The notes: a model not told the origin generated them from the sequence alone. Positions 11,010 to 61,116 are shown, counted from the first letter of the stretch. The stretch is DNA of 64,000 bases from Vicinamibacterales bacterium (GCA_035575715.1 DATLXN010000011.1:6354-70353); one strand, 5' to 3'. Translations and numbers: made by a program.

Positions 11010-11037
11010 GGTCCCTGATCCCTGATCCCTGGTCCCT
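11010..11037. repeat. four tandem heptamers GGTCCCT GATCCCT GATCCCT GGTCCCT in the hisH-hisF spacer
   Basis: Read directly from the sequence. The four units are in one register and fill most of the 48-nt gap between the hisH stop (10994) and the hisF GTG (11043). Confidence 0.9.
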
Positions 11038-11042
11038 ACCTC

Positions 11043-11798
11043 GTGCTGTCTAAACGCATCATCGCCTGTCTCGACGTGCGCGACGGCAAGGTCGTCAAGG
11101 GCGTCAACTTCGAGGGGTTGCGCGAAGCCGGTGATCCCGGTGAACTGGCGGCGCGCTACAACCACGAGGGCATCGACGAGATCGTCATCCTCGACGTCAC
11201 CGCGACCATGGAGGCCCGACAGGCGCGGGCACAGACCATCCGCGCCGTTGCGCGCGAGATTTTTCTGCCGCTCTGCGTCGGCGGCGGCATTCGCAGCGAG
11301 GATGATGCCGCGGCGGCGATTGACGCAGGCGCCGACAAGGTCAGCCTCAATACCGCCGCACTGCGCGACCCCTCGCTGATCACCCGCCTGGCTTCACGCT
11401 ATGGCAGCCAGGCAGTGATTGTCGCGATCGACGCGAAACGGCAGAACGCGCGCTTCGAGGTCTACGCGCGAAGCGGGACCGACCTGACCGCGAAGGACGC
11501 GCTCGACTGGGCTCGAGAGGCGGCCGACTGCGGCGCGGGCGAGATCCTGCTGACCTCGATCGACCGCGACGGCACGCGCGCGGGATTCGATTGCGCACTC
11601 ACCGCGGCGGTGTCCGACGCGGTCCCGATCCCGGTGATTGCGTCTGGAGGGGCGGGCGCCTTCGAGCATTTTGCCGAGGTCTTCACCGCAGGCGCTGCCG
11701 ATGCCGCGCTGGCGGCGTCAATTTTTCATTTCAATGAGAAGAGCGTGAGCGAGCTGAAACGCTTCCTCGCGGCGAGAGCGATTCCGGTTCGACTGTGA
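11043..11798 (+). CDS. hisF: imidazole glycerol phosphate synthase, cyclase subunit
   Basis: [35 protein letters not shown] and ASGGAG motifs. Confidence 0.9.
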
Positions 11799-11821
11799 CC
11801 GACAATGCACGGAGCTGACTT

Positions 11822-12520
11822 ATGTTGATTCCCTCAATCGATCTCAAAGGCGGCAAAGTCGTTCAGCTCGTTCAAGGCGACAAACTGGCCATCGAGTCCG
11901 ACGATCTCGACGGCTGGATGGTGAAGTTCGCTCGCTTCGCGAAAGTCCAGTTGATCGACCTTGATGCCGCGATGGGCATCGGCACTAACGACCAACTGGT
12001 TCGCCGGGTCGCATCGCGTCTGCCCTGCCGCGTCGGCGGTGGCGTACGCTCGGTCGGACGGGCGCAGGAGTTGCTCGCTGCCGGCGCCGAAGCGGTGATC
12101 GTCAGCTCCGCGTTCTTTGACGCCCATCGCTCGAGCGAAGCAGCCGGCGTGATCGACTTCGATTTCGCCCGCGCGCTGGCCGACGCGATCGGCCGGGATC
12201 GCGTCATCGGCGCCGTCGACTCGAAAGCCGGCAAAGTGGTCATCCACGGCTGGAAGACGACGCTGCCGATCACGGCGGTCGAGGCGGTTAAGGCACTCGA
12301 GCCGTATTGCGGCGAGTTCCTCTACACCCATGTCGATACAGAAGGACTGATGCAAGGCACCGACCTCGCGGCGATCCGCGCCGTCGCGCAAGCGACTTCT
12401 AGTAAGCTCACCGCCGCAGGCGGAATCACCACGCGCGCGGAAATTGATGCGCTGCATGCCGAAGGAATCGATGCAGTGGTCGGCATGGCGATCTACACTG
12501 GCTCGCTGGCGCTCGATTAG
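11822..12520 (+). CDS. hisA: ProFAR isomerase (HisA family)
   Basis: IPSIDLKGGKVVQLVQG, LIDLDAA, GGGVRS and AAGGITT motifs. (beta/alpha)8 paralogue of hisF. Last gene of the operon. Confidence 0.8.
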   Translation: MLIPSIDLKGGKVVQLVQGDKLAIESDDLDGWMVKFARFAKVQLIDLDAAMGIGTNDQLVRRVASRLPCRVGGGVRSVGRAQELLAAGAEAVIVSSAFFDAHRSSEAAGVIDFDFARALADAIGRDRVIGAVDSKAGKVVIHGWKTTLPITAVEAVKALEPYCGEFLYTHVDTEGLMQGTDLAAIRAVAQATSSKLTAAGGITTRAEIDALHAEGIDAVVGMAIYTGSLALD

Positions 12521-12564
12521 ATGTGGTGATCATCAGATCGCGCGATTCACCAAAGGAGACCCCG

Positions 12565-13035
12565 ATGTCCGTGAAGCCCATTCCCGACGGTTACCACAGC
12601 GTCACGCCGTACTTAATCGTTCGCGGCGCAACCAAAGCGATCGACTTCTACAAGGAAGTGTTCGGCGCCACCGAACTGATGCGGATGGACGCGCCAGGCG
12701 GAAAGATCGGACACGCGGAGATCAAGGTCGGCGATTCCACCCTGATGCTCGCGGACGAGAATCCGCAGTGGGGCTCCGAAAGCCCCGAACTGCTCGGCGG
12801 CTCGCCCGTGCAGTTGATGATCTACGTCGACGACTGCGACGCGACCTTCAAGAAGGCGATCGCGACGGGTGCGGTCGAAGTGCGACCGCTCAAGGATCAG
12901 TTCTACGGCGACCGATCTGGCTCGGTCACCGATCCATTCGGCCACAACTGGACCATCGCCACCCACAAAGAAGATCTCTCGCCAGAAGAGATGGGACGCC
13001 GCGCGGCCGCAGAAGCAGCCCAGGCGGGAGGGTAA
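12565..13035 (+). CDS. VOC/glyoxalase-family protein (PhnB-like)
   Basis: The start was moved to ATG 12565, behind SD AAGGAG (12553-12558). The protein reads MSVKPIPDGYHSVTPYLIVRGATKAIDFYKEVFGA...HAEIKVGDS, typical of the PhnB/VOC fold. Confidence 0.7.
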   Translation: MSVKPIPDGYHSVTPYLIVRGATKAIDFYKEVFGATELMRMDAPGGKIGHAEIKVGDSTLMLADENPQWGSESPELLGGSPVQLMIYVDDCDATFKKAIATGAVEVRPLKDQFYGDRSGSVTDPFGHNWTIATHKEDLSPEEMGRRAAAEAAQAGG

Positions 13036-14451
13036 ATGCTCCTCCGCATCTGTCTCGGCCTGGTCGTCGCGTTGAGCACCACGCTCATCGCGCAGCGGCC
13101 GCAGTTGGCCGATGCGGTCAAGCCGTATCTCCGCACCAACGAACCTGTTGTCGCGCTGACCAACGTCCGGGTGATTGACGGTAGCGGTGGCGCAGCGCGC
13201 GAGCGGCAGACGGTGGTGATCAGGGACGGCATCATTGCGACGGTTGGCGATGCCGCGGTCACGACCGTGCCGGCCGGCGCCGAAGTGATCGACCTCACCG
13301 GCCGCAGCGTCATCCCGGGCATGGTCATGCTGCATGAGCACCTCTACTACCCGACCGGCCCGGGCGTCTACGGTCAACTGGGCGAGAGCTTCAGTCGCCT
13401 TTATCTCGCCGGCGGCGTGACCACGATGCGCACCGGCGGGAATATGAATGGCTACATGGACCTCAATCTGAAACGCGCGATTGAGAGCGGACAGAAAGCC
13501 GGACCAGCAATCGACGCGACCGCCCCGTACGTGAATGGGCCGAATACGTTTCAGCAGATGACCAGCGTCACCACTGCCGACCAAGCCCGCCAGCACGTGG
13601 CGTATTGGGCCGGCCAGGGGGCGACATCATTCAAGGCCTACATGCAAATCTCGCGCGTCGCGCTTGGCGCGGCGATCGAAGAAGCGCACCAGCGCGGCAT
13701 GAAGGTGACCGGGCACCTGTGCTCGGTGACCTATAGCGAAGCGGCCGATCTCGGCATCGATAATCTCGAACACAGTTTTCTCGCGGCAACTGATTTCGTC
13801 AGCGACAAGCAGCCGGACACCTGCCCCGGACAAGGACGGGGCCAGCAAACCGTCAATGCGGTCGACGAGAATGGCGCGCCGTTCAAAGCACTCGTCGCCA
13901 AACTAATTGCCAAAGGCGTCGCGCTGACCTCCACCCTCACCGTGTTTGAAACCTTCACACCGGGCCGTCCGCTGCCCCCCGGCTTGGAAGTGCTCACGCC
14001 GCAGCTCAAACAGCAGTTCGAGCAGACCCATGCACGCACCGCGCAGAACAAGGAGTCGATTTACCGGACCCTGCTGCCTAAAGCGATGGCGCTGGAACGC
14101 GCATTTGTGCGCGCCGGCGGGACTCTGGTCGCCGGCACGGACCCAACTGGCTCTGGCGGCGTCATACCTGGATATGCCAATCAGCGGCAGCTCGAGCTGC
14201 TGGTCGATGCCGGGTTTACGCCGCTCGAGGCGATTCGCATCGGCACCATGAACGGCGCGCGCTACCTCGGCCGCGAGAAGGCGGTCGGAACCATTGAGGT
14301 CGGCAAACAGGCCGACCTCGTCGTGCTGAACGGTGATCCGTCGACGAGGATTGCGGATGTGCGGCAGGTCGAGATCGTCTTTCGGCAGGGTGTCGGCTAC
14401 GACCCGGCCAAGCTGATCGCTTCGGTGTCTGGTCGGGTTGGGCTGTTCTAG
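13036..14451 (+). CDS. secreted amidohydrolase-superfamily metallohydrolase
   Basis: Signal peptide present. HxH metal motif (MLHEHLYY). C-terminal GTDP and [10 protein letters not shown] motifs typical of the amidohydrolase family. Confidence 0.7.
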
Positions 14452-14517
14452 GGGACAGGTCCTTCAGGACCTGTCCCCGCACCTGTCCCCTCAGGACCTG
14501 TCCCCTCAGGTCCCCTC
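14451..14517. repeat. perfect 12-bp-stem palindrome followed by a tandem 15-nt direct repeat (three copies of ACCTGTCCCC)
   Basis: GGGGACAGGTCC-TTCA-GGACCTGTCCCC spans 14451-14478. ACCTGTCCCCTCAGG occurs at 14481-14495 and 14496-14510, followed by TCCCCTC. The element starts at the last base of the amidohydrolase stop codon. Confidence 0.85.
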
Positions 14518-14530
14518 AACGAGGTTTGTC

Positions 14531-15019
14531 GTGGATACAGTACGAGTGAAGGTGTTCGATGCAAAGGGCGATCTCATCGGCCCAATCGAAACCGCCAAGG
14601 TCGAAAAAACCGACGCCGAATGGCGGGCGCAATTGACGGCCGACCAATTTCAGGTCGCACGCGGCAAAGGCACGGAACGGCCGTTTTGCGGCACGCTGCT
14701 CGACAACAAGCAGCTAGGTGTTTACACCTGCATCTGCTGCAACCTGCCGCTGTTCACCTCGGACGCCAAATTCCACTCGGGCACCGGATGGCCGAGTTTT
14801 TTTCAGCCCATCGCCGACCAGAACGTGATCAACGACGAGGATGTCACCTACGGCATGCGACGCGTTGAGATCCTCTGCGCCCGCTGTGATGCCCATCTCG
14901 GCCACGTTTTCGAGGACGGTCCGCGCCCGACCGGACTACGCTACTGCGTCAATTCCGAATCGCTCACGTTTACCGACAGTAGCGATCTCTCGTCCCTCGC
15001 CGAGCCGGCCGCCAGCTAA
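14531..15019 (+). CDS. msrB: peptide-methionine (R)-S-oxide reductase
   Basis: The start was set to GTG 14531, behind GAGG (14521-14524). Two CxxC zinc motifs ([19 protein letters not shown]), plus GTGWPSF and RYCVNS. Confidence 0.85.
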
Positions 15020-15057
15020 GATAGAGGGGCCTGCCCGACAGAAGAAGGTGTGCTCGA

Positions 15058-16908: not shown

Positions 16909-16943
16909 CCACGCGCCTGCCCCTCATCCTGCTGCTCGCGTGT

Positions 16944-17822: not shown

Positions 17823-17955
17823 GCTGCGTGACGCGGCGGCGCTCGGGTTCGAAACGCCCTGAGCTGGCACTCTGCCGGACTAGTGGATTGCTGCGGCCAA
17901 ACAGGCCCGGAAGAAGTAGAATTGCGGGTCAGCTCAAACACGACCGGAGGATTTC

Positions 17956-22369: not shown

Positions 22370-22418
22370 AACCCGGCGGAGCCGGTCCCACCGCGAAGCG
22401 GTCCTGCGCGAAGGGGTC

Positions 22419-24020: not shown

Positions 24021-24048
24021 CGTTGCATCACTACATCAATGTATCCAG

Positions 24049-24279
24049 ATGCGGACGACCGTGACCCTCGACGACGACGTCTTTCAAGCCGTCCAAGCGC
24101 TGATGCGCGGATCAGGGAAGACGCTGGGGCAAGTCCTGTCGCATCTGGCGCGGCGCGGGCTGCGCGCGCAGGACGCCTATGCGACGCGATCCGGTCTGCC
24201 CGTCTTTCCGGTCAGCGCCAACGCGCCAATCATCCCGTCGGATCGGGCCAGCGAACTCCTGGCCGACGAGTTGCCGTGA
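24049..24279 (+). CDS. vapB: type II antitoxin (VapB-like)
   Basis: 76 aa, reading MRTTVTLDDDVFQAVQALMRGSGKTLGQVLSHLARRGL. GTGA overlap with the downstream PIN-domain gene. Confidence 0.7.
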   Translation: MRTTVTLDDDVFQAVQALMRGSGKTLGQVLSHLARRGLRAQDAYATRSGLPVFPVSANAPIIPSDRASELLADELP

Positions 24280-24710
24280 AGCCCGCGCTGCTCGACGTCA
24301 ACGTGCTGCTGGCCCTCGCCTGGCCGTCGCATCAGCATCATCAGGACGCGCACCAGTGGTTTCACAAGGAATCGCGCTACGGCTGGACGACCTGCGCACT
24401 CACCCACCTGGGATTCGTGCGGCTCTCCTCACACCCCGCCTACACCGTCGATGCGGTGTCGCCACACGATGCGGCCAGCTTGCTGCAACAGTTGACGCGG
24501 CATCCCAAACATCAGTTCTGGAGCGCACTCCCGCCGCTCGACCAGCGCCTGCTGCAAAATGCGACCGGACACCGGCAGGTCACTGACGCCTACCTCGTCA
24601 GAGTGGCGCGCGCCCACGACGGCCGTTTGGTCACCTTCGATACCCGGATCGCCGTCCACGCGATCACGGCCGGAGACGTGAAGACCATTGGCCAGCCACT
24701 TTCGCCGTAA
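24276..24710 (+). CDS. vapC: PIN-domain toxin (VapC-like ribonuclease)
   Basis: The start was set to GTG 24276 (VKPALLDVNVLLAL...). Acidic PIN residues are present (LLDVN, TDAYL, TFD). The track ORF from 24039 is an out-of-frame upstream extension across vapB. Confidence 0.7.
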   Translation: MKPALLDVNVLLALAWPSHQHHQDAHQWFHKESRYGWTTCALTHLGFVRLSSHPAYTVDAVSPHDAASLLQQLTRHPKHQFWSALPPLDQRLLQNATGHRQVTDAYLVRVARAHDGRLVTFDTRIAVHAITAGDVKTIGQPLSP

Positions 24711-27770: not shown

Positions 27771-27791
27771 CCCTGCTCCCTGATCCCTGCA
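27771..27791. repeat. three tandem heptamers CCCTGCT CCCTGAT CCCTGCA
   Basis: Read directly from the sequence. It uses the same CCCTGAT word as the array at 11013-11033. It lies in the spacer between the GT2 gene and the heavy-metal-binding protein gene. Confidence 0.8.
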
Positions 27792-29878: not shown

Positions 29879-32800
29879 ATGACCACCCCCCCACCCAACC
29901 TCGTCACCCGACTCCTGCTCGACTGGAGTGCTGGAGATAAAGAGGCCTTCGACCAGCTGGTCCCGCTGGTTCATGAGGAACTGCGGCGATTGGCCGAAGG
30001 CTACATGCGTCGCGAGCCCGCCGGGCACACGTTGCAACCGACGGCGCTCGTGAACGAGGCCTACCTTCGCCTGGTCGACCAGCGCCGGATGCGGTGGCAG
30101 GATCGCGCCCACTTCTTTGCCATTTCGGCGCAGATGATGCGTCGCATTCTTGTCGACCACGCACGCAAGCGCCGCTACGCCGAACGCGGTGGCCCCGACG
30201 CGATCAAGATGAACCTCGACGAAGCCCTCGACTTCTCTCAGGGACGCGCCGCTCACGTCGTCGCACTGGACAATGCGCTCAGCCAGCTCGCCAAGGTCGA
30301 CCCGCAACATGGCAAGGTCGTCGAGCTGCGATTTTTTGGTGGATTGACGATCGAGGAGACCGCTGACGTGCTCGGATTGTCGCGCGACAGGGTCAAGCGC
30401 GAGTGGGCGACTGCGAAAGAGTGGCTAACGCGGGAGCTCACCGCGCAGACGGCGGAAGGTAGCGAACCGGTCAGTGCTCAGAAGACCGGGCCTTACGAGA
30501 TCCTCGAGCAGCTGGGCGCCGGTGGAATGGGCGAGGTTTTCCTCGCGCATGACAGTCGCCTCGGGCGCAAGGTCGCGCTCAAGCTGCTCCCCTCCTACTT
30601 CATCAACGACGGGGAGCGGTTGCAGCGCTTTCAGCAGGAGGCCAGTGCCGCGTCGCGGCTGAATCATCCGAACATCGTCACCATCTACGAAGTCGGGCAG
30701 CTCGATTCCGGTCCCTACATTGCGACTGAGTACATCGACGGCGTGACGTTGCGCGCATGGATGGAACAGAAGCACCTGAGCGTCAGCGATGCGATTGACG
30801 CCGCGCTGCAAGTCGCCTCCGCTCTGGCGGCCGCGCATGCCGCGGGCATTGTCCATCGAGACATCAAGCCCGAGAACATCATGGTGCGGCGCGATGGCTT
30901 GTTCAAGGTGGTCGACTTCGGACTCGCCAAGCTGACCGAACCGGGAGTTGCACCGATTTCGCCGGACCTGGCGGCGACCAAGCGGCTGCTGTTCAAGACC
31001 GATCCCGGCACGGTGATGGGCACGGTGATCTACATGTCGCCGGAACAGGCACGTGGCTGGGTCGTCGACGCGCGCACCGACATCTGGAGCCTTGGGGTCG
31101 TGCTCTACGAAATGGTCGCCGGTCAGCCACCGTTTGACGGCGGCAGTGTCGCGGACATCCTGGTGTCGATTCTCGACCGCGGCGCGCCGCCACTGACCCA
31201 TCCTGGTGGCGTCCCACCTGAACTCGCGCGCGTCGTTGCGAAGGCGCTGCACAAGGATCAGGAGCAGCGCTACGCGCAGGTCGACGATCTGATGCGGGAT
31301 CTGCGCGTGCTTCAACAGGATCTCAGCTTCGCCGAGCAGTTGCGGCGCAGCACCCAGGGTGAATCGATCGCCCCGGAGACGCCCGCGATCGAGACGGCCG
31401 CGCCAGAGGCGTCGGGGCGTCGCGCGCATAACTTCTCCACGCAGCGGAGCACCCTCATCGGTCGCGACACCGAACTGGCCCTGCTCAACACGCGGCTGCG
31501 GGACGACGAGGTGCGTCTGGTGACCCTGACCGGGCCCGGCGGTACCGGCAAGACGCGGTTGGCGTTGCAGGCGGCGGGCGATGTGGTCGACGCGTTCGAT
31601 CACGGCGTCGTCTTCGTGGCGCTGGCTGCCATCAGTAATCACGAGGTCGTCGCGTCGGCGATTGCTCAAGCGCTGGGGGTTCAGGAGACCCGCGAGCGAA
31701 CGTTCGCGGCTGGGCTGATCAACTATCTGCGCGATAAAACGATGCTGCTGGTGTTGGACAACTTCGAGCAGGTGGCGCCAGCCTCGCTTCTGGTCGCGGA
31801 CCTATTGGCGTCCTGTCCACAGGTCAAAGTGCTGGTCACCAGCCGCGCCCCGTTGCAGCTGTCCGACGAGCGGGAATTTCAGGTGCCGCCGCTGGCCCTG
31901 CGACAAGCAGAAGTCCTGTTCGTGCAGCGGGTCATGGCGGCTAAGCCGCAGTTCGCGTTGACCACCGACAGCGCGCGCGTGATCAGTGAAATCTGCGCAA
32001 GGCTCGACGGGCTCCCGCTGGCGTTGGAACTGGCGGCGACGCGTATCAAGCTGCTGTCGCTGGAAGAAATCTCGGCGCGGCTTAACCAGCCGCTGCAGCT
32101 GCTGCAGGGCGGAGCCAAAGATTTGCCGCCGCGCCAGCAAACCATGCGCGCCACGATTGCATGGAGCTATGACTTGCTCAGCGACGACGCACAAATGTTG
32201 TGGCGCCGGCTGTCGGTGTTCGTCGGCGGCTTCACGCTGGCCTCGGCAGAGGCGGTGTGCAGCGACATCAACGGCGTGACCATTGCGGTGCTCGATGCGC
32301 TCGAGTCGTTAGTGGACGAGAGCCTGGTCCAGCGCAAGGACATCGGCGACGGCACCTATCGCTTCCTGATGTTGGAGACCATTCGCGAATACGGACTGGA
32401 GCGCCTCGCGGCGAGCGGCGAGACCGCCCAATTGCGACGGCAGCATGCGATGTTCTGCGTTGACCTCGCGGAGGACGCAGAGCGGCATCTGCGGAGCGTG
32501 AGGCGCGATCCGTGGCTGGCGAGGCTCGAAAGCGAACATCACAATATCGGCGCGGCGCTCCGCTGGACGCTCGACAACGATGAGACCGAGATGGGCCTGC
32601 GGCTGGTCGGTGCTCTGCGCTGGTTCTGGTATCACCGCGGGCATATTGGTGAGGGATATCACTGGGCCACCGCGTTGCTCGCACGACAAGACGCGACGGC
32701 GTCTGTCAAGGCCAGAGCCAACGCCTTATACGCCGCCGGAAGTCTGGCGTTCTATTACAGCGATCCCACTGCCGCCGGCGCGTTACTCAGGGAAAGTGCA

Positions 32801-33367
32801 GTGCTGTGGCGAGCACTCGGCGACCGTCAATCGCTCGCCTATGCGCTGACCTTCACCAGCCTGCCGATTCACCTCGGCGAACGGGATTTCCCTGAGGCGC
32901 GCACCACTGCTGAAGAGGCGGTAGCGCTGTTCAGGACTCTCGATGATCCGTGGGGGCTGGCGTTGTCGCTCAATTACGCCGGCATCATCCTCTGGACCGA
33001 ACCGGGGGCCGAACAACAGGCGACGGCGATGCTCAAGGAGAGCGTGTCGTTGTTTCGTGGCCTTGGCGATGGCTGGGGTGTCGGCGGGGCCGCTCTTTAT
33101 CTCGGCGGCATGCACCAGGACCGCGGCGAAGTTCAGGAAGCGCGGGCGTTGTACGAAGAGTTCGTTGCAGTGATCCGTGAGTCGAAGGATCTGTGGCGGC
33201 TGGCGTCCGGCTTGGAGATCCTTGCGTCGTTACTCCGCGACGAAGGAGAAGACGCACGCGCCGACGCCTTGACTGAGGAGAGCACCACACTGCAACGCAA
33301 GCTGGGCCGATCGCTCAGTCTCAAGAAGGCGTGGGATCAGATGAAACTCGCTCGGCAACGCAGCTGA
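29879..33367 (+). CDS. multidomain fusion: ECF-type sigma factor, Ser/Thr protein kinase, STAND/AAA NTPase, TPR repeats
   Basis: Sigma part, aa 1 to about 190: LLLDWSAGDKEAFDQLVPLVHEELRRLA and RFFGGLTIEETADVLGLSRDRVKREW. Kinase part: GAGGMGEV, VALK, HRDIKPEN, DFGLAK, SPEQ. NTPase part: Walker A GPGGTGKT (31532-31555) and Walker B LLVLDN. The C-terminal 450 aa or so are TPR-like. One continuous 1162-codon ORF. Confidence 0.8.
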   Translation: MTTPPPNLVTRLLLDWSAGDKEAFDQLVPLVHEELRRLAEGYMRREPAGHTLQPTALVNEAYLRLVDQRRMRWQDRAHFFAISAQMMRRILVDHARKRRYAERGGPDAIKMNLDEALDFSQGRAAHVVALDNALSQLAKVDPQHGKVVELRFFGGLTIEETADVLGLSRDRVKREWATAKEWLTRELTAQTAEGSEPVSAQKTGPYEILEQLGAGGMGEVFLAHDSRLGRKVALKLLPSYFINDGERLQRFQQEASAASRLNHPNIVTIYEVGQLDSGPYIATEYIDGVTLRAWMEQKHLSVSDAIDAALQVASALAAAHAAGIVHRDIKPENIMVRRDGLFKVVDFGLAKLTEPGVAPISPDLAATKRLLFKTDPGTVMGTVIYMSPEQARGWVVDARTDIWSLGVVLYEMVAGQPPFDGGSVADILVSILDRGAPPLTHPGGVPPELARVVAKALHKDQEQRYAQVDDLMRDLRVLQQDLSFAEQLRRSTQGESIAPETPAIETAAPEASGRRAHNFSTQRSTLIGRDTELALLNTRLRDDEVRLVTLTGPGGTGKTRLALQAAGDVVDAFDHGVVFVALAAISNHEVVASAIAQALGVQETRERTFAAGLINYLRDKTMLLVLDNFEQVAPASLLVADLLASCPQVKVLVTSRAPLQLSDEREFQVPPLALRQAEVLFVQRVMAAKPQFALTTDSARVISEICARLDGLPLALELAATRIKLLSLEEISARLNQPLQLLQGGAKDLPPRQQTMRATIAWSYDLLSDDAQMLWRRLSVFVGGFTLASAEAVCSDINGVTIAVLDALESLVDESLVQRKDIGDGTYRFLMLETIREYGLERLAASGETAQLRRQHAMFCVDLAEDAERHLRSVRRDPWLARLESEHHNIGAALRWTLDNDETEMGLRLVGALRWFWYHRGHIGEGYHWATALLARQDATASVKARANALYAAGSLAFYYSDPTAAGALLRESAVLWRALGDRQSLAYALTFTSLPIHLGERDFPEARTTAEEAVALFRTLDDPWGLALSLNYAGIILWTEPGAEQQATAMLKESVSLFRGLGDGWGVGGAALYLGGMHQDRGEVQEARALYEEFVAVIRESKDLWRLASGLEILASLLRDEGEDARADALTEESTTLQRKLGRSLSLKKAWDQMKLARQRS

Positions 33368-34607: not shown

Positions 34608-34640
34608 CAGTTACTCACCTTACACCGACGATCCACAGAA

Positions 34641-34677
34641 GCACGGAAGCACGAAATGACTTTCCGTGTTTCCGTGC
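34641..34677. repeat. hairpin built from CACGGAA/TTCCGTG words
   Basis: The left arm GCACGGAAGCACGAAA spans 34641-34656 and the loop is TGAC. The right arm TTTCCGTGTTTCCGTGC spans 34661-34677. TTCCGTG occurs at 34662 and 34670. The hairpin lies between the two cytochrome/monooxygenase genes. Confidence 0.8.
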
Positions 34678-34701
34678 CTCGAAGACCGTCGTCGGGCTGC
34701 G

Positions 34702-38297: not shown

Positions 38298-38359
38298 AAC
38301 ACGAAGTTCCCGAACAGCACGAAGTGAATGATTTCTTCGTCTACTTCGTGTTCTTCGTG
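38298..38359. repeat. inverted cluster of CACGAAG / CTTCGTG words between convergent genes
   Basis: CACGAAG occurs at 38300 and 38318. CTTCGTC occurs at 38335 and CTTCGTG at 38344 and 38353 (9-nt spacing). The arms can pair as an imperfect hairpin. Confidence 0.75.
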
Positions 38360-38368
38360 TCGTTTCCC

Positions 38369-38393
38369 GACGACCGACCACCGACGACCGACC
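38369..38393. repeat. 3.5 tandem heptamers GACGACC GACCACC GACGACC GACC
   Basis: Read directly from the sequence. Same family and orientation as the 30-unit array at 39937-40146. It runs into the stop codon (38393-38395) of the minus-strand hydrolase gene. Confidence 0.85.
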
Positions 38394-39916
38394 TATTGTC
38401 GCGTCGTCGGATTCTGTTTTTTCTTCGTCGCGAAAAACTCAAACATCCCGGCCAGGTTCGGCACGACCACGTCGCTGTGGCCGCCGCCGGGGACTTCGAT
38501 GTAGACGTGATCGACCTCCTGCGTCTTCATCTCGGCCACCATGCCGCGGGAGCCGCCGACCGGGACCGTCGGGTCGTTGTCGCCGTGCACGACAAACTGC
38601 GGGATGTGCTTCATTCGCACCACGCTGGTCGGTGCGCCGGTGCCGGCAAAGGTTCCAAGCGCCGCCCAGATATCCGGGTACTTCGCAGCGAGGAACCAGG
38701 TGCCGATCGCGCCCATTGAGTGGCCCATCAGGAAGATGCGTGAGTCGTCGACTTTGAAATCACGGCGCATCCGCGCCAGCACCTGCATCACATCCTGTTC
38801 GCTGAATTCCTGCTTGCGCTTCGACGCGGCGTCGCTGCCATAGCTGAAGCCGTAGAAGCCGTCCACGCGGTAGCCGAGTGGGGACACCGCGATGAAGCCG
38901 TGCTTCTCCGCGAGTTCAGGCACGCGCTTGGCGTAGTTGTCCATCATGCCATCTTCGTTCCCCCCCAAACCATGGAGCGCGACAACCAGTGGCGCCGGTT
39001 TGGCCGGGTTGTAGGTCGACGGGACGTAGACGCGGTAGGGCATGATCTCGCCGGCCACTTCGAGCAGATAGTGGCGTTCGAAGTCGCCGGTGCGGTTGGC
39101 AAACGGATCCTTGCCGCCGTTCGCGGCGGCGGCAATGGTCTCGGCGGCAGCCAACTCTTTGGCCAGGTCGAACTGACTCAACTCCATCGTGCCGCGGTTC
39201 ACTTTGCGCAGGTAGTCGGCCGGGTAGCGGATGTCGGCGCGCACATTGTCGGCAGCGGCAAGCGCCGCCTTCTCCAACGCGGCCAGCCGCGACTCGAGCC
39301 CTTTCTGCACAGCGATACGCAGGCTCGCGGTGCCCAGCTTGGCGGCCCCATCGCTCACGTCGACATCGAGCATGTAAGCGCCGTCGGGTACGGCCGACAG
39401 ATCGAGTTCCATGTGCAGCGGCATGTCGCGCAGATCACGACTGACGTCGCTGAAGTCCGCGATTGGCTTCAGGTCACCGGCGCCGGCCGGCGCCGCCAGC
39501 AGTGGCCGCACGGTTGCGCGTGCCGTCAGCGGGCTGGCCAACTGCATGACCGGCGCAAAGATCTGCTCGAGCCGGACGTGATACGGCAGTGATGAGTCGA
39601 CGAACTGCCGCTCGCTGCGCAGGATCAGTGACTGATCGAAGTCATCGGCGTCGGTCCACGGCCGCTTGTTGAGCAGGGCCATCCCCTTGGCGATCTGGCG
39701 CCGCATCTCCGCCGTCCGGCCAAGACGCATCGCCTCGGCGATCTCTTTGTCGATCGCATCGATGGCGATCTTCAATTCGCCGTCAGGCTTGACGCGATTC
39801 TTGAGTGAGTTGTAGCCAACGCGCGCGAGTGCGGCGTTGGGCGGCGCCTGGGCAAAGGCTGGCGCCGATAAGGCGAGGGCAACCGCTGCGATGGTGACAA
39901 GACGGGCAATGCGCAT
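38393..39916 (-). CDS. secreted alpha/beta hydrolase (esterase/peptidase type) with an N-terminal domain of about 270 aa and unknown function
   Basis: Signal peptide MRIARLVTIAAVALALSAPAFAQ. C-terminal motifs VVALHGLGGNED, GHSMGAIG (nucleophile elbow) and HGDNDPTVP. SD GGGAG lies on the minus strand at 39921-39925. Confidence 0.7.
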   Translation of the reverse strand: MRIARLVTIAAVALALSAPAFAQAPPNAALARVGYNSLKNRVKPDGELKIAIDAIDKEIAEAMRLGRTAEMRRQIAKGMALLNKRPWTDADDFDQSLILRSERQFVDSSLPYHVRLEQIFAPVMQLASPLTARATVRPLLAAPAGAGDLKPIADFSDVSRDLRDMPLHMELDLSAVPDGAYMLDVDVSDGAAKLGTASLRIAVQKGLESRLAALEKAALAAADNVRADIRYPADYLRKVNRGTMELSQFDLAKELAAAETIAAAANGGKDPFANRTGDFERHYLLEVAGEIMPYRVYVPSTYNPAKPAPLVVALHGLGGNEDGMMDNYAKRVPELAEKHGFIAVSPLGYRVDGFYGFSYGSDAASKRKQEFSEQDVMQVLARMRRDFKVDDSRIFLMGHSMGAIGTWFLAAKYPDIWAALGTFAGTGAPTSVVRMKHIPQFVVHGDNDPTVPVGGSRGMVAEMKTQEVDHVYIEVPGGGHSDVVVPNLAGMFEFFATKKKQNPTTRQ

Positions 39917-39936
39917 GTGACTCCCTCTGATCGATT

Positions 39937-40146
39937 GGCGATTGGCGATTGACGACCGACGACTGACGACTGACGACTGACGACTGACGACTGACGACTG
40001 GCGATTGACGACCGACGACTGGCGATTGACGACCGACGACTGACGACCGACGACTGACGACTGACGACTGGCGACTGGCGACTGGCGACTGGCGATTGGC
40101 GATTGGCGATTGGCGATTGGCGATTGGCGATTGGCGACCGACGACC
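39937..40146. repeat. 30-unit heptanucleotide tandem array, consensus GRCGAYY
   Basis: Counted by hand in one unbroken register. Units are GGCGATT x10, GACGACT x11, GACGACC x5, GGCGACT x3 and GGCGACC x1, arranged in homogeneous blocks. The array fills 210 of the 254 nt between divergent start codons. Confidence 0.95.
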
Positions 40147-40716: not shown

Positions 40717-40749
40717 ATTCCGTGGTCCTGCGTTTCCGTGCCACGCAGG
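40717..40749. repeat. TTCCGTG-N9-TTCCGTG element with embedded hairpin
   Basis: TTCCGTG occurs at 40718 and 40734 (16-nt period). CCTGCG (40727-40732) pairs with CGCAGG (40744-40749). The element is about 85 percent identical by eye to 58178-58210. Confidence 0.8.
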
Positions 40750-40767
40750 TCCCCCGTTTGAACGTGT

Positions 40768-43850: not shown

Positions 43851-43882
43851 CACAGATTTCACAGATCTCAAGACGTCACAGA
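43851..43882. repeat. three CACAGA words in a 5' intergenic region
   Basis: CACAGA occurs at 43851, 43860 and 43877. The reverse complement shares GTGAAATCTGTGG with 57237-57249. Confidence 0.7.
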
Positions 43883-48338: not shown

Positions 48339-48386
48339 GCAGGCAGGCGGGTAGGCAGGTAAGCGGGTAGGCAGGTAAGCAGGTAA
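48339..48386. repeat. six tandem octamers, consensus GCRGGTAR
   Basis: GCAGGCAG GCGGGTAG GCAGGTAA GCGGGTAG GCAGGTAA GCAGGTAA, starting 4 nt after the receptor stop codon. Confidence 0.9.
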
Positions 48387-48393
48387 CTAAGAT

Positions 48394-48422
48394 GGGCGGG
48401 TGCGCTTCGTGCGCGCCCGCCC
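48394..48422 (+). terminator. GC-rich stem-loop without U-tract (possible terminator of the receptor gene)
   Basis: GGGCGGG-T-GCGC-TTCGT-GCGC-G-CCCGCCC. It covers the GTG at 48400, which argues against that start codon. Confidence 0.4.
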
Positions 48423-48435
48423 ATTCGTGTCTTCA

Positions 48436-50028
48436 ATGAAATGTTGTCTTTCGTCTTTCGTCTTTCTCCTTTCCGTCACTGCGTCGTCCGCGCAGCACGC
48501 CTCGCATCGTCTTGCGCCCATTCCACTCGAAATCGTTGAACGGCCCGTGACGATGCGGGCCGGCGTGCCGCGTGCGCATGACGATACGGGCTCGCCATCG
48601 AAAGAGGCGCAGGCGTTCTACGACCAGGGGCTCGCCTATCTCCATTCGTTTGTCTGGATCGAGGCCGCGCGATCGTTCAACGCGGCGCTGCGCAGCGATC
48701 CGACACTCGCGATGGCGCACCTTGGCTTGAGCATCGCGTTTACGGAACTGAATCGACCGGCCGGTGCGCAGAAGGCGTTTGACGCAGCTGCCGCACACGC
48801 ACCGCAGGACGCGCATGCGCGACGCCACATCGACGTGCGGCGGCTGCAGATGTTTGCCGAGGGCGCACCCGGTGACGCGGCCAAGCTGGCGGCGTATCGC
48901 CAGGCGCTTGACGCCGCGATCACGGCGTTTCCACAGGACGCCGAGTTTGTATTGCTGCGCGGCATGGCCGAATCCGGCGACGCCGCCGATCGCGGCCAGG
49001 GCAGCCTTGCCGCCTCGGTCAGGTATTACGAACGCGCGCTCGCGCTGGAGCCGGGATATTTCGCGGCTCACCACTTTCTCGCGCATGCACACGAGAACGC
49101 GGGACACCAAGCCGCCGCGCTGCCACACGCCGCGACGTTCGCCAAACAGGCCGCGGAGATCCCGCACGCGCGCCACATGCACGGCCACAGCCTGCGTCGC
49201 GTCGGCCGCGTCCACGACGCGATTGTTGAATTCGAAGCCGCCGATCGCCTGCACCGGCAGTATGCGCAACGGGAGAAGATCGCACCGGAGTACGACTGGC
49301 ACTTCGAGCACAACCTCGGCTTGCTCGCCACCTCGCTCCACTACACCGGTCAAATCAAGCGCGCCGAGACATTATTGAAAACGGCATTCGCGCTGCCGAC
49401 CAACCTGCTGGTTCAGGCCTACAACAAACGCGAGTGGCCGATGTTCCTGCGCGCACGCGGACGCTATACCGAGGCAGAAGCCGCGGCCAAGGTGCTCATC
49501 GGCCACGCCAACCCCGTGGTCCAGGCGACGGGCCACATCGAGGCCGGCTTTGCGCTGCTGGCGCAGCAGCGCTGGGGCGAGGCGGCCAACGCCTCGAATG
49601 CGGCGCTGCGGCTGTTGCGGACGGCGCCGGGCGGCGCCGTCGCGGCCACTGCGCTGCAGGCGTTACAGGGAGAATTCAACCTGCGCACCGCGGAACGCGC
49701 CAAAGGCCGCGCCATGCTCGAAGAGGCGGCGAAGAAGCTGCGTGCCGCACCAGGGCCCGACGCCTGGAGCCAGGCACTTTTCAGTCTGGAGCAGATGGCT
49801 CGCAGCGCGCGCACCGTCGGTGATTGGGAGCTCGCGGGGAAGTTGGCGGGGCACATGGCTGAGCACGACCCGGCCTACGGCGGGACGCACTACGCACTTG
49901 CACTTGTGGCGGAGCACGGCGAAGATGCCGCTACGGCCAAAGCCGAGCTGGCGCTGGCCCTGAAGTCTTGGGCGAAAGCTGATCCCGATTTACCTGAACT
50001 CGTCGAGATTCGAAAGAAATTGAAATGA
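48436..50028 (+). CDS. TPR-repeat protein with predicted signal peptide
   Basis: The start was set to ATG 48436 (MKCCLSSFVFLLSVTASSAQ), downstream of the hairpin. Multiple TPR-like helices follow (AQAFYDQGLAYLHSF..., YYERALALEPGYFAAHHFLAHA). If the signal peptide is not real, the start could be the ATG near 48553. Confidence 0.6.
   Translation: MKCCLSSFVFLLSVTASSAQHASHRLAPIPLEIVERPVTMRAGVPRAHDDTGSPSKEAQAFYDQGLAYLHSFVWIEAARSFNAALRSDPTLAMAHLGLSIAFTELNRPAGAQKAFDAAAAHAPQDAHARRHIDVRRLQMFAEGAPGDAAKLAAYRQALDAAITAFPQDAEFVLLRGMAESGDAADRGQGSLAASVRYYERALALEPGYFAAHHFLAHAHENAGHQAAALPHAATFAKQAAEIPHARHMHGHSLRRVGRVHDAIVEFEAADRLHRQYAQREKIAPEYDWHFEHNLGLLATSLHYTGQIKRAETLLKTAFALPTNLLVQAYNKREWPMFLRARGRYTEAEAAAKVLIGHANPVVQATGHIEAGFALLAQQRWGEAANASNAALRLLRTAPGGAVAATALQALQGEFNLRTAERAKGRAMLEEAAKKLRAAPGPDAWSQALFSLEQMARSARTVGDWELAGKLAGHMAEHDPAYGGTHYALALVAEHGEDAATAKAELALALKSWAKADPDLPELVEIRKKLK
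48446..48473. repeat. four tandem heptamers GTCTTTC GTCTTTC GTCTTTC TCCTTTC inside the 5' end of the TPR ORF
   Basis: Read directly from the sequence. Same word as the pyrimidine arm at 61068-61116. Confidence 0.85.
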
Positions 50029-52306: not shown

Positions 52307-52318
52307 CGAGACGGACAA

Positions 52319-52377
52319 GCCGCAGAGGCACAGAGACGCAGAGAATGTTTCTCTCTGTGTCTCTGAGTCTCTGTGGC
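52319..52377 (+). terminator. long, nearly perfect hairpin (about 26 bp) built from CAGAG/CTCTG words; no U-tract
   Basis: Hand pairing of 52319-52344 with 52352-52377 gives one mismatch and three G-U pairs. The loop is ATGTTTC. The hairpin starts 13 nt after the dehydrogenase stop codon. Confidence 0.55.
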
Positions 52378-52388
52378 CGCGCTCGTCC

Positions 52389-52424
52389 CTACCCGCCCAC
52401 CTGCCTACCTGCCCACCTGCCTGC
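52389..52424. repeat. four tandem octamers CTACCCGC CCACCTGC CTACCTGC CCACCTGC (reverse complement of the GCRGGTRR family)
   Basis: Read directly from the sequence. CTACCCGC is the exact reverse complement of the GCGGGTAG units at 48347 and 48363. Confidence 0.9.
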
Positions 52425-54649: not shown

Positions 54650-54660
54650 TTGCGCCGCCG

Positions 54661-54695
54661 CACTCAGCACTTAGCACTTAGCACTTAGCACTTTA
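54661..54695. repeat. five tandem heptamers CACTCAG CACTTAG CACTTAG CACTTAG CACTTTA
   Basis: Read directly from the sequence. The last unit contains the stop codon (TAA on the minus strand, 54693-54695) of the TPR gene. Confidence 0.9.
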
Positions 54696-56536: not shown

Positions 56537-56696
56537 ACTGAAGTAAGGCGTGCGGCATGTACCGGATCACCCGGTCATGCGGCATAGTAATGAACATCAG
56601 CAGCTGAGCTCGGCCTGGTGCGGCGCCCGGCCTCGCTCGTATCCCCGCCACATTACGGGGCGCGGAATATGCAGCGTCGCACGCGGGAGAAAACTT

Positions 56697-57185: not shown

Positions 57186-57224
57186 ATGCTGAGGACCCCG
57201 CTGACCCAGATGCAGTTGGCCAAC

Positions 57225-57263
57225 TCTGTGTCATCGGTGAAATCTGTGGGCGGCTTTTCTGTG
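57225..57263. repeat. three TCTGTG words upstream of the epimerase-family gene
   Basis: TCTGTG occurs at 57225, 57243 and 57258. This is the inverse of the CACAGA words at 43851-43882. Confidence 0.7.
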
Positions 57264-57271
57264 GTCTTGTA

Positions 57272-58165: not shown

Positions 58166-58177
58166 TCACGAGCGTTG

Positions 58178-58210
58178 ATTCCGTGGTTCAGCGCTTCCGT
58201 GCAACGTGCC
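58178..58210. repeat. TTCCGTG-N9-TTCCGTG element, second copy
   Basis: TTCCGTG occurs at 58179 and 58195, the same 16-nt period as 40718/40734. It lies between convergent gene ends. Confidence 0.8.
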
Positions 58211-58212
58211 GT

Positions 58213-59472: not shown

Positions 59473-59482
59473 CGCGGTGCCT

Positions 59483-60937
59483 CTAGTTGAACTGGTACTC
59501 GGACGACGCGACGATCAGCCGCGCTAAGCCGGCGCTCTTGTTATTCAGCTGCGTCTCGTTGCCGGTCCATGCGCCACCGGCGCGCAGGTACTCGAGCAGC
59601 GCGTTGTAGACGTCAGTCGACATCGGCGCATAGGTAAAGTGATTGAGCATGTAGTCGAGGACACGTTCAGGCGTTTGGCGGTAGTCGGCAAGCTCGCGGC
59701 CCAGATTGAACTTCTGATTGGCCATCAACGTCGCGGCGAAATTCATCCGTGCCAGCATCGAGGCAGTGGAAAACCATTCCGGACCGAGGGCCCAGCCGTT
59801 GACGTCGGGTGGCTCATACAGGCTCTGACCCATATTGGCAAGCGGGGTCATCGCCGCATCCACTGACAACCCGTTCCAGCCGGTCTCTTTGATCGCCCGA
59901 ACGACGAATTCAACCGGCCAGGAGTAATGCCCGAATGTCGACCCGAGAAACGCCTCACTGGTAAACAAGCGACGCAACACCGCTTTGATGTTGCCGTCGT
60001 TCTGCATATAGACATTCGCGAGGTCGCTGATCACGCGAGCATCCGGGGCGGCCACCTCGCTGACGAAGAAGGCGTACAGTTTCTGCACCAGGCGATGCGC
60101 AGTGGCTGGTTGGCGCGCCAGGGCGGCGATCAGATCGAGCCCGTCCTGCATCCCCTGCGATGCGGCGCGGGCCGGAATGCGCTTGCCGCCGTCGGTATAC
60201 ACCGCAAACGTGAAGTCTTTGGCGGTGACGTCATGGTTGGCTTCGTTGAAGACGAACTCGTAGTACGACGTGTCTGCGGTCGTCCGATCGCCGGAGAAGC
60301 GGACGCTCCATCCGGTGAACACCCGCGCCGCAGCCACGACATCGGCTTCCGTGTACTGGCCGATGCCAATCGTGAACAGCTCGAGGATCTCGCGGCCAAA
60401 ATTCTCTTGCGGACGCTGACGGGTGTTGTTCCGACCATCGAGCCAGACCAGCATCGCGGGATCGCGCGATACTTCGGTCAACAACTCGCGGAAGTTGCCG
60501 GTCGCCATGTTGCGGAACAACTGGTATTGGCCACGCATATGGCCTGCGGTCTGATCGCTACGGCCGGCCATCATCTTGGTGGCATGCACTGATCCGAACG
60601 TCCCGTTGACCTTGCTGAAGGCGGTCGCGAAATGGTTGTGCCAGAACAGCGCCATCTTCTCTTGCAGCGGACGGCGGCTGTGCACCATGCGAAACAGCTC
60701 GCGTTGGCGCGCGTCGTTGACCACCGTGTTCGGTGCAAACTGCCCACGCGTGGTGACCGACACGTATTCCGGCTTGTTGATGTGGTCATCAACATCGTCT
60801 GGTTCCTGCTCGTAATTGAGCAGATTGTCGATAACGCTCCCGAGGGAGGCCCCGGAATAGCGAGCTAGGTCGGCAGTGCTGGCGCCGAATCCGATGCGGC
60901 GGAGCACATGTTCAAGCGTGCGATCACCCCTGGGCAT
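59483..60937 (-). CDS. DUF1800-family protein
   Basis: 484-aa ORF with FWHNHFAT-type and LDGRNN-type motifs that I recall from DUF1800. It sits immediately upstream of the DUF1501 gene. Confidence 0.65.
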   Translation of the reverse strand: MPRGDRTLEHVLRRIGFGASTADLARYSGASLGSVIDNLLNYEQEPDDVDDHINKPEYVSVTTRGQFAPNTVVNDARQRELFRMVHSRRPLQEKMALFWHNHFATAFSKVNGTFGSVHATKMMAGRSDQTAGHMRGQYQLFRNMATGNFRELLTEVSRDPAMLVWLDGRNNTRQRPQENFGREILELFTIGIGQYTEADVVAAARVFTGWSVRFSGDRTTADTSYYEFVFNEANHDVTAKDFTFAVYTDGGKRIPARAASQGMQDGLDLIAALARQPATAHRLVQKLYAFFVSEVAAPDARVISDLANVYMQNDGNIKAVLRRLFTSEAFLGSTFGHYSWPVEFVVRAIKETGWNGLSVDAAMTPLANMGQSLYEPPDVNGWALGPEWFSTASMLARMNFAATLMANQKFNLGRELADYRQTPERVLDYMLNHFTYAPMSTDVYNALLEYLRAGGAWTGNETQLNNKSAGLARLIVASSEYQFN

Positions 60938-61029
60938 TAGCTGTCCTCGTGAAAGAGATACCGATCCTAGCCCAGCAAGGGGGAATCGGCGTGGTGGATT
61001 TGACCGCCACCACCCCGCCGGGGTTTAAC

Positions 61030-61116
61030 GAAAGAAGAAAGAAGAAAGAAGAAAGACGGAAATAACGCTTTCGTCTTTCGTCTTTCGTCTTCCGTCTTCC
61101 GTCTTCCGTCTTCCGT
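61030..61116. repeat. purine-heptamer array (GAAAGAA x3, GAAAGAC, GGAAATA) facing a pyrimidine-heptamer array (CTTTCGT x3, CTTCCGT x4); foldable as a long imperfect hairpin
   Basis: Units counted by hand. GAAAGAC (61051-61057) pairs perfectly with GTCTTTC (61073-61079). Neighbouring units pair at 5-6 of 7 positions. Confidence 0.9.

Follow-up and report, generated by a model that had tools for sequence, protein, structure and literature searches.

Tandem arrays of words of 7 or 8 nt lie between the genes of a 64,000-nt stretch of DNA from a Vicinamibacterales bacterium (GCA_035575715.1, DATLXN010000011.1:6354-70353; hereafter the window), and they belong to a kind of intergenic heptamer repeat that has already been described in cyanobacteria, Xanthomonas and other bacteria. 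The short tandemly repeated repetitive (STRR) heptamers of Calothrix and Nostoc were reportedly described by Mazel et al. in 1990. Across prokaryotes, heptamers are the most abundant tandem repeat in spacers, and their function is unknown (bioRxiv 10.1101/309039). The long simple-sequence repeats (SSRs) of Mrazek et al. 2007, as summarised in PMC4679880 and PMC4692102, have units of 5-11 nt, with heptamers the commonest. For repeats of this kind, slippage of the polymerase is the cause that has been put forward (PMC4679880, PMC4692102, bioRxiv 10.1101/309039). The GGGAATC repeats of Xanthomonas and the GGGGA(C/T)T repeats of Nostoc are intergenic, near the ends of open reading frames (ORFs) and under-represented between divergent ORFs (Rehm et al. 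2015, PMC4692102). Some of them form inverted pairs and possible stem-loops, their length and sequence vary between close relatives, and the adjacent genes come from all functional classes; the STRR heptamers are mentioned in the same paper (PMC4692102). Direct repeats of TAACTGA in Beggiatoaceae, cyanobacteria and Bacteroidetes lie in spacers and often touch start codons (MacGregor 2015, PMC4679880). With moderate confidence, we read the arrays of the window as slippage-driven long SSRs that are often seeded at 3' hairpins, are tolerated only in non-coding DNA and possibly serve as terminator or stabiliser hairpins.

The window has a G+C content of 61-67% and a very high coding density, with about 2.9 kb (4.6%) intergenic in a hand-checked gene map. 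Arrays called by Tandem Repeats Finder (TRF) cover 683 of 2836 intergenic nucleotides (24%) after start-codon corrections, as against 50 ± 32 nt in 200 dinucleotide-preserving shuffles of the spacers. Before these corrections, coverage was 22.5% of intergenic and 1.5% of coding nucleotides. Eleven of 30 spacers hold some array (1.3 in shuffles) and nine hold an array of period 7 or 8 (0.38 in shuffles); the 13 intergenic rows of period 7 or 8 have 2.0-31 copies. Rows within genes are few; most have a period divisible by 3 or are weak matches of two copies. In a control of 50 kb of E. coli K-12, the identical tool returned no intergenic arrays. This excess of about 14-fold over shuffles, confined to spacers, supports the original prediction, made from the sequence of the window, that the arrays are more than isolated chance slippage. 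Every array it listed was found in its place, by TRF and by direct reading of the sequence. The wording that intergenic DNA is largely built from such words was too strong: they account for about one quarter of the bases and for half of the spacers, being present in 15 of the 30 spacers of at least 20 nt once the spaced copies at 40718, 57225 and 58179 and the hairpin array at 14451 are counted. Recurrence of words across the window is real though modest, with 17 pairs of spacers sharing an exact 10-mer (6.9 ± 2.7 in shuffles); seven of these pairs correspond to words named beforehand.

Start-codon calls were misled by arrays at three genes (40096 instead of 40171, 14438 instead of 14531 and 48553 instead of 48436). 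Because the lipocalin gene starts at ATG 40171, and not at an upstream TTG, the 31-unit array before it is entirely intergenic; likewise, the start of msrB at GTG 14531 makes the repeat at 14451-14518 intergenic. By position, the arrays and related features of the window are:

1407..1428: mini-hairpin ACGCAGA-loop-TCTGCGT, of the CRCRGA/TCYGYG motif, in a convergent spacer; beyond the range covered by the original prediction.
11012..11037: TCCCTGA, 3.7 copies, filling the 48-nt hisH-hisA spacer.
14451..14518: perfect hairpin GGGGACAGGTCC-ttca-GGACCTGTCCCC, beginning at the last base of a stop codon.
22370-22418: 15-nt repeat CGCGAAGCGGTCCTG, about 2 copies, in a convergent spacer; a longer-period relative of the arrays, not previously listed.
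27771..27789: CCCTGAT, 2.7 copies (weak), in a 44-nt co-directional spacer; the word is that of 11012.
34626..34691: long hairpin with arms CACAGAAG-CACGGAAG-CACGAAA and two copies of TTTCCGTG, filling the spacer between two minus-strand genes.
38300..38360: two copies of CACGAAG facing three of CTTCGTS (the first copy being CTTCGTC); a weaker inverted array in a convergent spacer.
38367..38393: CCGACGA/CCGACCA, 3.9 copies, abutting the hydrolase stop codon; same word family as at the 5' end of that gene.
38393-39916, minus strand: alpha/beta-hydrolase gene, 507 aa.
39927..40146: A[CT][TC]G[AG]CG, 31 units, in the divergent spacer between the hydrolase (minus strand) and lipocalin (plus strand, ATG 40171) genes.
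40718..40752: two copies of TTCCGTG, 16 nt apart, in or beside a small hairpin GGTCCTGCGT/ACGCAGGTCC in a convergent spacer; fold z -2.05.
43851..43882, plus strand: three copies of CACAGA with a period of about 9, 20 nt past a stop codon; the next ATG follows after 7 nt.
48339..48385: GCAGGTAG/GCGGGTAG, 5.9 copies, immediately past the stop codon of a TonB-dependent receptor gene.
48446..48466, plus strand: GTCTTTC, three copies (21 nt, 7 codons), in the frame from ATG 48436.
52319..52377: GCAGAG/CACAGAGA units facing TCTCTGTG units; hairpin 13 nt past the PQQ-propeller stop codon.
52388..52422: CCTACCTG, 4.4 copies; reverse complement of the 48339 word, 4 kb apart.
54660..54693: GCACTTA, 4.9 copies, across the whole of a 43-nt convergent spacer and into the stop codon of a minus-strand TPR gene.
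57225..57263: three copies of TCTGTG at spacings of 15-18 nt, shortly before the start codon of the epimerase gene (ATG 57272).
58179..58201: two copies of TTCCGTG spaced 16 nt, in a convergent spacer.
61027..61116: GAAAGAA, 3.9 copies, facing CTTTCGT (three copies) and CTTCCGT (four copies); very long imperfect hairpin.

At 14451 the hairpin is followed by additional tandem copies of its loop and 3' arm (a 15-nt unit), so that ACCTGTCCCC is found in copies at 14469-14518 and as an inverted copy at 14452. Within the 34626 hairpin, CACGGAAG and TTTCCGTG are located at 34634 and 34661, and the CACAGA/TCTGTG words of the 52319 hairpin are at 52321 and 52352. The spacer at 27771 has an exact 10-mer in common with the spacer at 10995, as has the 38367 array with the spacer at 39917. 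The canonical word of the 11012 array, AGGGATC, is also arrayed in L014, L037 and L045 (sequences other than the window are given L numbers), and the four CCC runs of this array make its opposite strand of the G-quadruplex type (G3N4). A separate GC-rich hairpin (48391-48427) follows the 48339 array. The array at 61068 consists of three copies of CTTTCGT and then four of CTTCCGT; its first block is the word GTCTTTC of 48446. This last repeat had been counted as an intergenic array, but it probably lies within coding sequence, where it probably encodes the hydrophobic core of the signal peptide MKCCLSSFVFLLSVTASSAQ of a TPR protein, and its exactly three heptamer units keep the reading frame. 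The Logan gene call starts 39 codons later (48553) and would miss the signal peptide.

The arrays are almost certainly no artefact of the assembly of short metagenomic reads. Independent assembly of SRR7741809, the one run in which the species was detected, gave two Logan contigs that are 100% and 99.99% identical to the window over 6.3 and 11.6 kb and reproduce its internal arrays. Many projects, using many assemblers, have yielded metagenome-assembled genomes with similar arrays, some of them on contigs of 0.7-1.2 Mb (L011, L012, L016, L030 and L045) that are taken to be long-read assemblies; furthermore, the arrays respect gene boundaries and occupy orthologous spacers. Arguing for an artefact, all three Logan contig ends examined lie inside arrays: one at 39979, and the two ends of contig L001 at 48351, within the 48339 array, and at 54695. 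We attribute these ends to repeated or length-heterogeneous k-mers that break the de Bruijn graph. The arrays thus fragment k=31 assemblies, and they may lie at sites where length varies within the population. As the break at 39979 falls inside the 219-bp, 31-unit array, which probably exceeds a typical short read (read length unchecked), the copy number of that array is insecure in this short-read assembly.

To place the window among its relatives, we used an alignment search with the hydrolase family, which gave 80 loci (1.4 Mb) of GTDB species representatives. Their labels are nearly all Acidobacteriota, Vicinamibacterales or gp6, and the sequences nearest to the hydrolase protein of the window are 72-73% identical to it. 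Counted at a TRF score of at least 40, intergenic arrays in these relatives have periods of 7 (91 arrays), 9 (47), 8 (35) and 14 (19), with few others, and the median copy number at period 7 is 4.6. In coding DNA the array periods peak at 12, 15, 9 and 18. Array load per locus ranges from none in about 20 kb (for example, L023, L059, L073 and L078) to 8-13 arrays, and arrays make up 14-25% of spacer DNA in the array-rich loci L016, L031, L032, L043, L045 and L085. The array-free loci L023 and L078, each of about 21.5 kb, are from the closed long-read metagenome-assembled genomes OY970174 and OY970261. The window ranks at the array-rich end. Rather than being peculiar to one genome, as was first supposed, the pattern runs through about 80 Vicinamibacterales/gp6 relatives, and is a trait of parts of the order Vicinamibacterales.

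Words are diverse across these genomes, with 61 canonical heptamers among 89 arrays. We compared pairs of same-period arrays more than 150 nt apart within a locus with pairs drawn from different genomes. Identical canonical words are found in 7.0% of within-genome pairs and 0.64% of between-genome pairs, an 11-fold difference, and words that differ by at most one base in 20% and 3.7%. The idea of a genome-specific vocabulary in which periods 7 and 8 dominate therefore holds. In L030 and L045, the vocabulary is a family of single-substitution variants (CCGGCAG, CCGGCAT, CCGGTAT, CCGGAAC, CCGGATC, GGCAGAA and GGCAAAA), and in L012 a family of AAGTTAC, CAGTTAC and AACTGGT occupies six sites in 10 kb. 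The dominant words of L011 and L012 (2622, 2919, 4321, 6752 and 12967-13108) are GTAACTG and GTAACTT. At L004 8751-9987, one 8-mer occurs in three successive spacers (ATTGGGTG / CCAATCAC / CAATCACC); the first two of these arrays, which are inverted, flank a 23S_rRNA_IVP (Avd-like four-helix-bundle) gene, which L002 and L003 lack at this place.

The closest relatives compared, L030 and L045, have about 95% nucleotide identity. The hairpin (GGCAGAA)n...(TTTTGCC)n that they share has an 8-nt gap between them, approximately one unit. In a second spacer the word itself is exchanged, as considered below, and in a third, a (GGGTCTT)n array in one genome has as its counterpart about 170 nt of unique sequence in the other. 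A 258-aa ORF without a Pfam match is present in L030 (4874-5812) and absent from L045 (5415-5522); it sits exactly between (CCGGTNT)n and (TTCTGCC)n arrays, which adjoin in L045. The divergent hydrolase-lipocalin spacer contains 31 copies of GACGACT in the window, 6.5 copies of CAATCACC in L004, four copies of CACAGAACA in L002 and no array in L003. A conserved array at this spacer was considered and rejected: genuine arrays are present in only about 12-14 of 81 relatives (approximately 15%), which does not exceed the background rate, and their words differ. The array in the window is the longest in the whole data set. It is composed of blocks of identical variants (×5, ×4 and ×6) that differ by transitions only, together with a duplicated 21-nt higher-order repeat. 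Going by the order of its units, these variant runs and the duplicated block are the signature of a stepwise expansion, in place, by whole units. With the array at 38367-38393, it also flanks the hydrolase gene with CGACGAC-family arrays in direct orientation at both ends (38367-38393 and 39927-40146); recombination between the two could, in principle, delete or duplicate the gene.

Beyond the tandem units themselves, hairpins are a major feature of the arrays. An inverted copy lies within 160 nt (12-mer, at most one mismatch) of 64 of the 156 intergenic arrays (41%), compared with 0 in a reversed-sequence control. Array hairpins of the relatives reach -45 to -96 kcal/mol. The four main ones in the window have z values of about -5 against shuffles, loops of 4-7 nt and no T-run after them. 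They are at 14451-14478 (-42.6 kcal/mol, z -5.2, as RNA), 34626-34691 (-44.2 kcal/mol, z -5.4 on the transcribed strand; -37.4 on the other), 52319-52377 (-54.2 kcal/mol, z -5.1; also present in the independent contig L001) and 61027-61110 (-62.3 kcal/mol, z -5.3 on the transcribed strand; -55.8 on the other). The last lies 18 nt past the stop codon of the minus-strand PIG-L gene. The inverted array at 38300 folds with z of only -2.1 / -1.3. RNA-level selection, in the form of a strand asymmetry in folding, was rejected as results were mixed across the four hairpins: the transcribed strand is favoured at 34608 and 61030, and not at 52307 and 14445.

The arrays are positioned mainly with respect to gene ends. 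Convergent spacers contain 2.6 arrays per kb; the figure falls to 1.5-2.1 where the genes are co-directional and to 0.76 where they are divergent. The distance to the adjacent stop codon has a median of 14 nt, with 45% of arrays within 10 nt, and that to start codons has a median of 32 nt, with several within 10 nt. At hisH-hisA, 14451, 34608 and 43851, arrays fill the entire spacer in probable operons. Given where they stand and how they would fold, the array hairpins right after stop codons may be U-tract-less terminators, protectors of mRNA 3' ends like those of repetitive extragenic palindromic (REP) elements, or processing sites.

The same distribution bears on whether the arrays could be protein- or RNA-binding platforms or phase-variation switches, with copy number tuning promoter spacing or 5'-UTR function. 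This could be suggested by the 31-unit array, which takes up a divergent promoter spacer and has three -35-like hexamers, TTGACG, within it, by the arrays within 10 nt of start codons, and by the presence, in about 15% of relatives, of an array of some kind immediately 5' of the hydrolase gene. Counter to this, arrays are mostly at 3' ends, and divergent spacers, the promoter-only class, are the most depleted of all. Next to the arrays are housekeeping genes or otherwise ordinary ones, such as the his operon, msrB and hydrolases; phase-variation contingency loci carry their SSR in the 5' coding region or promoter of a virulence or surface gene, whose expression switches with unit number. Words at the same spacer differ between genomes, there is no strand bias relative to transcription, and, from the geometry of B-DNA, sites repeated every 7 nt would face different sides of the helix. 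We consider switches or binding platforms very improbable.

The words themselves carry no sign of sequence-specific information. In co-directional spacers there is no C/G bias of arrays relative to the direction of transcription (sense-strand counts of 32 and 34), no purine/pyrimidine asymmetry of the words was found, 44 heptamer units contain a stop codon where 47.5 are expected, and 23 words contain GGG or CCC where 18 ± 3.9 are expected. On these grounds, we rejected three candidate functions: rut (Rho-binding) sites, as there is no excess of C over G on the sense strand; backup stop codons in all three frames, as stop-containing units are not enriched; and G-quadruplexes or i-motifs as a general rationale, as G-runs are near expectation and only a few arrays (11012 and 14469) are of the G-quadruplex type. 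The lack of a strand, stop-codon or G-run signal argues equally against a single binding protein in general.

Hairpin terminators that lack a U-tract have been proposed for high-GC bacteria. In the window, only the gene ends at 6260, 19201 and 33349 have a convincing hairpin and T-run terminator; the array hairpins have no T-run and so are not canonical intrinsic terminators. The spacer orthologous to that of the 34626 hairpin contains a canonical terminator in L004 and a plain hairpin in L003, from which it follows that array hairpins occupy terminator positions. The further claim that arrays tend to replace canonical terminators does not follow. Strict canonical U-tract terminators are found in 11 of 809 3' regions of the order (1.4%), and across 55 loci there is no negative correlation between array fraction and terminator fraction (Spearman 0.08, p 0.56). 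The lineage is simply poor in canonical terminators, and replacement by arrays is not demonstrable. In L002, the ortholog of window spacer 34608-34701 (8938-9158) contains about 220 nt of repeats of about 50 nt (ggttttgaactg..ggtcttgg.ggttttgcacttggcgcgaagcgcc) with a very stable fold; this looks like an insertion similar to miniature inverted-repeat transposable elements, and not a short-unit array.

Unlike the heptamer words, one short motif is common to different genomes. Among hexamers in spacers of 20-400 nt at all loci, CACAGA/TCTGTG is the second most enriched (8.8-fold; 36 spacers in 27 loci). It belongs to a motif C[AG]C[AG]GA (CRCRGA, with TCYGYG on the other arm) spaced at 8-9 and 16-18 nt, usually with 2-4 units per arm. 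The CRCRGA arm is 5' of the TCYGYG arm in 18 regions and reversed in 8, whereas coding DNA is symmetric. In the window the motif occurs at 1407, 34626, 38300 (as the variant CACGAA), 40718, 43851, 52319, 57225 and 58179, and it matches no Rfam family. Of all the components, it comes closest to a REP-like family. The most enriched spacer hexamer is TAGAAT (15.5-fold), and TTGACA is enriched 5.2-fold. TAGAAT is likely a -10 box, and the pair suggests TTGACA-N17-TAGAAT as a Vicinamibacterales promoter consensus. Array hairpins end a few nucleotides from TAGAAT in L027 (8845), L031 (14375), L018, L022 and L041.

We infer that slippage and template switching caused the arrays. A short seed in a spacer, often one arm of a 3' hairpin, would be duplicated by slipped-strand mispairing during replication, after which whole units would be gained or lost and variants would spread blockwise. 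Template switching is a known mechanism of quasi-palindrome mutation, and between hairpin arms it would keep inverted arrays matched. Arrays would be lost from coding DNA because units of 7-8 nt break the reading frame, and purifying selection would in this way confine them to spacers, a small intergenic fraction. Fast turnover would leave every genome with its own drifting set of related words. The clearest hairpin-seeded case is 14451, where the repeat unit equals the hairpin's own loop and 3' arm.

Several observations weigh against this explanation. Slippage alone does not account for the recurrence of words at spacers 4-17 kb apart, nor for the exchange between L030 and L045 at 19740/19610, where a spacer with conserved flanks contains nine copies of CGGCARC in one genome and 7.7 copies of GGATCAG in the other. 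The preference for 7 nt is without an established cause. Hairpin energies show no consistent preference for the transcribed strand. Finally, canonical terminators are equally rare in array-poor relatives, and so the arrays are not needed for a terminator role. Owing to the distant reuse of words and their replacement in near-identical genomes, active copying or conversion, or a dedicated enzyme, stays as a minority reading.

One form of that reading is a dedicated, lineage-encoded system that writes or spreads the words and copies arrays between spacers. It could resemble REP elements and bacterial interspersed mosaic elements (BIMEs) with their REP-associated tyrosine transposases (RAYTs), or it could work by recombinase-driven gene conversion. 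The 11-fold excess of identical words within genomes and the six sites of one family in L012 would fit such copying, as would the word replaced at an orthologous spacer at about 95% identity. Arrays of the same word also bracket genes (the hydrolase in the window, at 38367 and 39927, and the IVP and lipocalin genes in L004), a gene is gained or lost exactly between two arrays in L030/L045, and the CRCRGA motif is order-wide with a biased hairpin orientation (18 and 8 regions). However, no transposase, RAYT-like or nuclease gene was seen among the genes of the window. Words within a genome are linked by single substitutions (CCGGCAG, CCGGTAT, CCGGAAC, CCGGATC), as mutation followed by expansion predicts, and 61 distinct heptamers in 89 arrays leave no single recognition sequence. 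In the few pairs inspected, arrays of the same word have no common flanks beyond the repeat. We regard a dedicated system as unlikely, though not negligible. Of the genome-specific system that was originally envisaged, the private vocabulary stands; dedicated machinery was not seen in the window, and the words are compositionally unremarkable.

A more elaborate proposal, which we think quite unlikely, has a lineage-encoded process installing and replacing arrays at 3' hairpins. The agent would be a nuclease/recombinase that acts on repeats or hairpins, or a template-switching replication or repair enzyme, and the outcome would be REP/RAYT-like, with a word of 7-9 nt in place of a 35-nt palindrome and with a CRCRGA/TCYGYG core. 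The hairpins would then be the main U-tract-less terminators and operon punctuation of the lineage.

The gene content of the window fits a soil acidobacterium. It includes CarboxypepD_reg/OMP_b-brl_4 TonB-type receptors, an M64 peptidase, a PQQ propeller protein, DUF1800/DUF1501 proteins, the his operon and an ECF-sigma/Ser-Thr-kinase/NB-ARC fusion. The fusion is one ORF of 1162 aa (29879-33367) that combines Sigma70_ECF (region 4), a Ser/Thr protein kinase, an NB-ARC/AAA ATPase and TPR repeats. Another ORF of 223 aa (24039-24710) has a PIN domain confined to residues 84-205, and its N-terminal part may be a separate small antitoxin gene, fused by the longest-ORF call. The window has no tRNA genes, and curated covariance models gave no Rfam matches at gathering score; the sole Rfam signals are two chance miRNA-hairpin matches (E of about 0.6-0.7).

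Vicinamibacterales are abundant soil bacteria with very compact genomes, and about one quarter of the spacer DNA consists of arrays here. The gradation from array-rich to array-free relatives is a comparative series in which array load can be set against replication or repair genes. The series also bears on whether hairpin arrays terminate transcription where canonical terminators are rare. On the practical side, arrays break short-read assemblies and mislead start-codon calls, and they could be strain-typing markers.

Compared with known systems, the arrays are unlike CRISPR, which has repeats of 24-48 nt and unique spacers, in that their units of 7-9 nt are directly adjacent. Like intrinsic terminators, array hairpins are stable and lie a few to tens of nucleotides from a stop codon; they differ in having no U-tract and stems of 20-45 bp, far longer than is typical, and some fill spacers in likely operons with no room for a new promoter. 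A REP/BIME element is a solitary palindrome of about 20-40 nt; the copies follow one conserved consensus, and a cognate RAYT gene encodes a Y1 transposase. The likeness lies in dispersed intergenic palindromes at 3' ends or within operons, stable hairpins and a genome-specific consensus. Here, in contrast, the hairpin arms are tandem arrays of many words, the single consensus of 20-40 nt is replaced by the large set of heptamers counted above, only the short CRCRGA motif is common across genomes, and the window has no RAYT gene. The original comparison with STRR repeats was apt, as both are tandem heptanucleotides in non-coding DNA and in both a few words are reused many times per genome. The STRR repeats belong to another phylum, to heterocystous cyanobacteria, and have other words: CCCCAGT, TTGGTCA and CAACAGT were not found among the array consensus units, and with a Vicinamibacterales host the arrays are not STRR members.

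The TAACTGA repeats resemble the arrays in that contigs break inside them and related genomes lack repeats at the same spacer. The words GTAACTG and GTAACTT of L011/L012 are one or two mismatches from TAACTGA, which is maybe a coincidence. In the TAACTGA genomes one word prevails, mostly upstream of start codons and forward, whereas the arrays here have many words, no orientation bias and a bias to 3' ends. With the Xanthomonas and Nostoc repeats the arrays share position, depletion in divergent spacers, inverted pairs, variation and the range of neighbouring genes. The TCCCTGA arrays of the window (GGGATCA on the other strand) are also of the G3N4 type, like the Xanthomonas and Nostoc words. 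In those genomes, one G-rich word is dominant and four units are preferred; here the vocabulary is broad and G-runs are not enriched (23 words against an expectation of 18).

The closest match is with the long SSRs, from which the arrays differ in that units of 8 and 9 nt are common too, 41% have inverted pairs and there are many words per genome. Head-to-tail units mostly of 7 nt, an intergenic bias, in-gene periods that are multiples of 3 and lineage-specific over-representation are common to both. Long SSRs are repeats, about three copies at the least, of a unit of 5-11 nt; the arrays have such tandem units, over-representation, a non-coding bias and variation between close relatives (L030/L045). 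The long-SSR passages of PMC4679880, PMC4692102 and bioRxiv 10.1101/309039 do not single out Acidobacteriota (Vicinamibacterales). In the literature searched, no paper was found that treats tandem repeats together with Vicinamibacter. Thus, the original remark that no such system had been described holds for Vicinamibacterales in that literature, but not for prokaryotes at large, in which intergenic heptamer arrays are widespread (PMC4692102, PMC4679880, bioRxiv 10.1101/309039). Of moderate note in the arrays of this lineage are their very high spacer occupancy, the frequency of hairpins made from inverted arrays and the order-wide CRCRGA motif.

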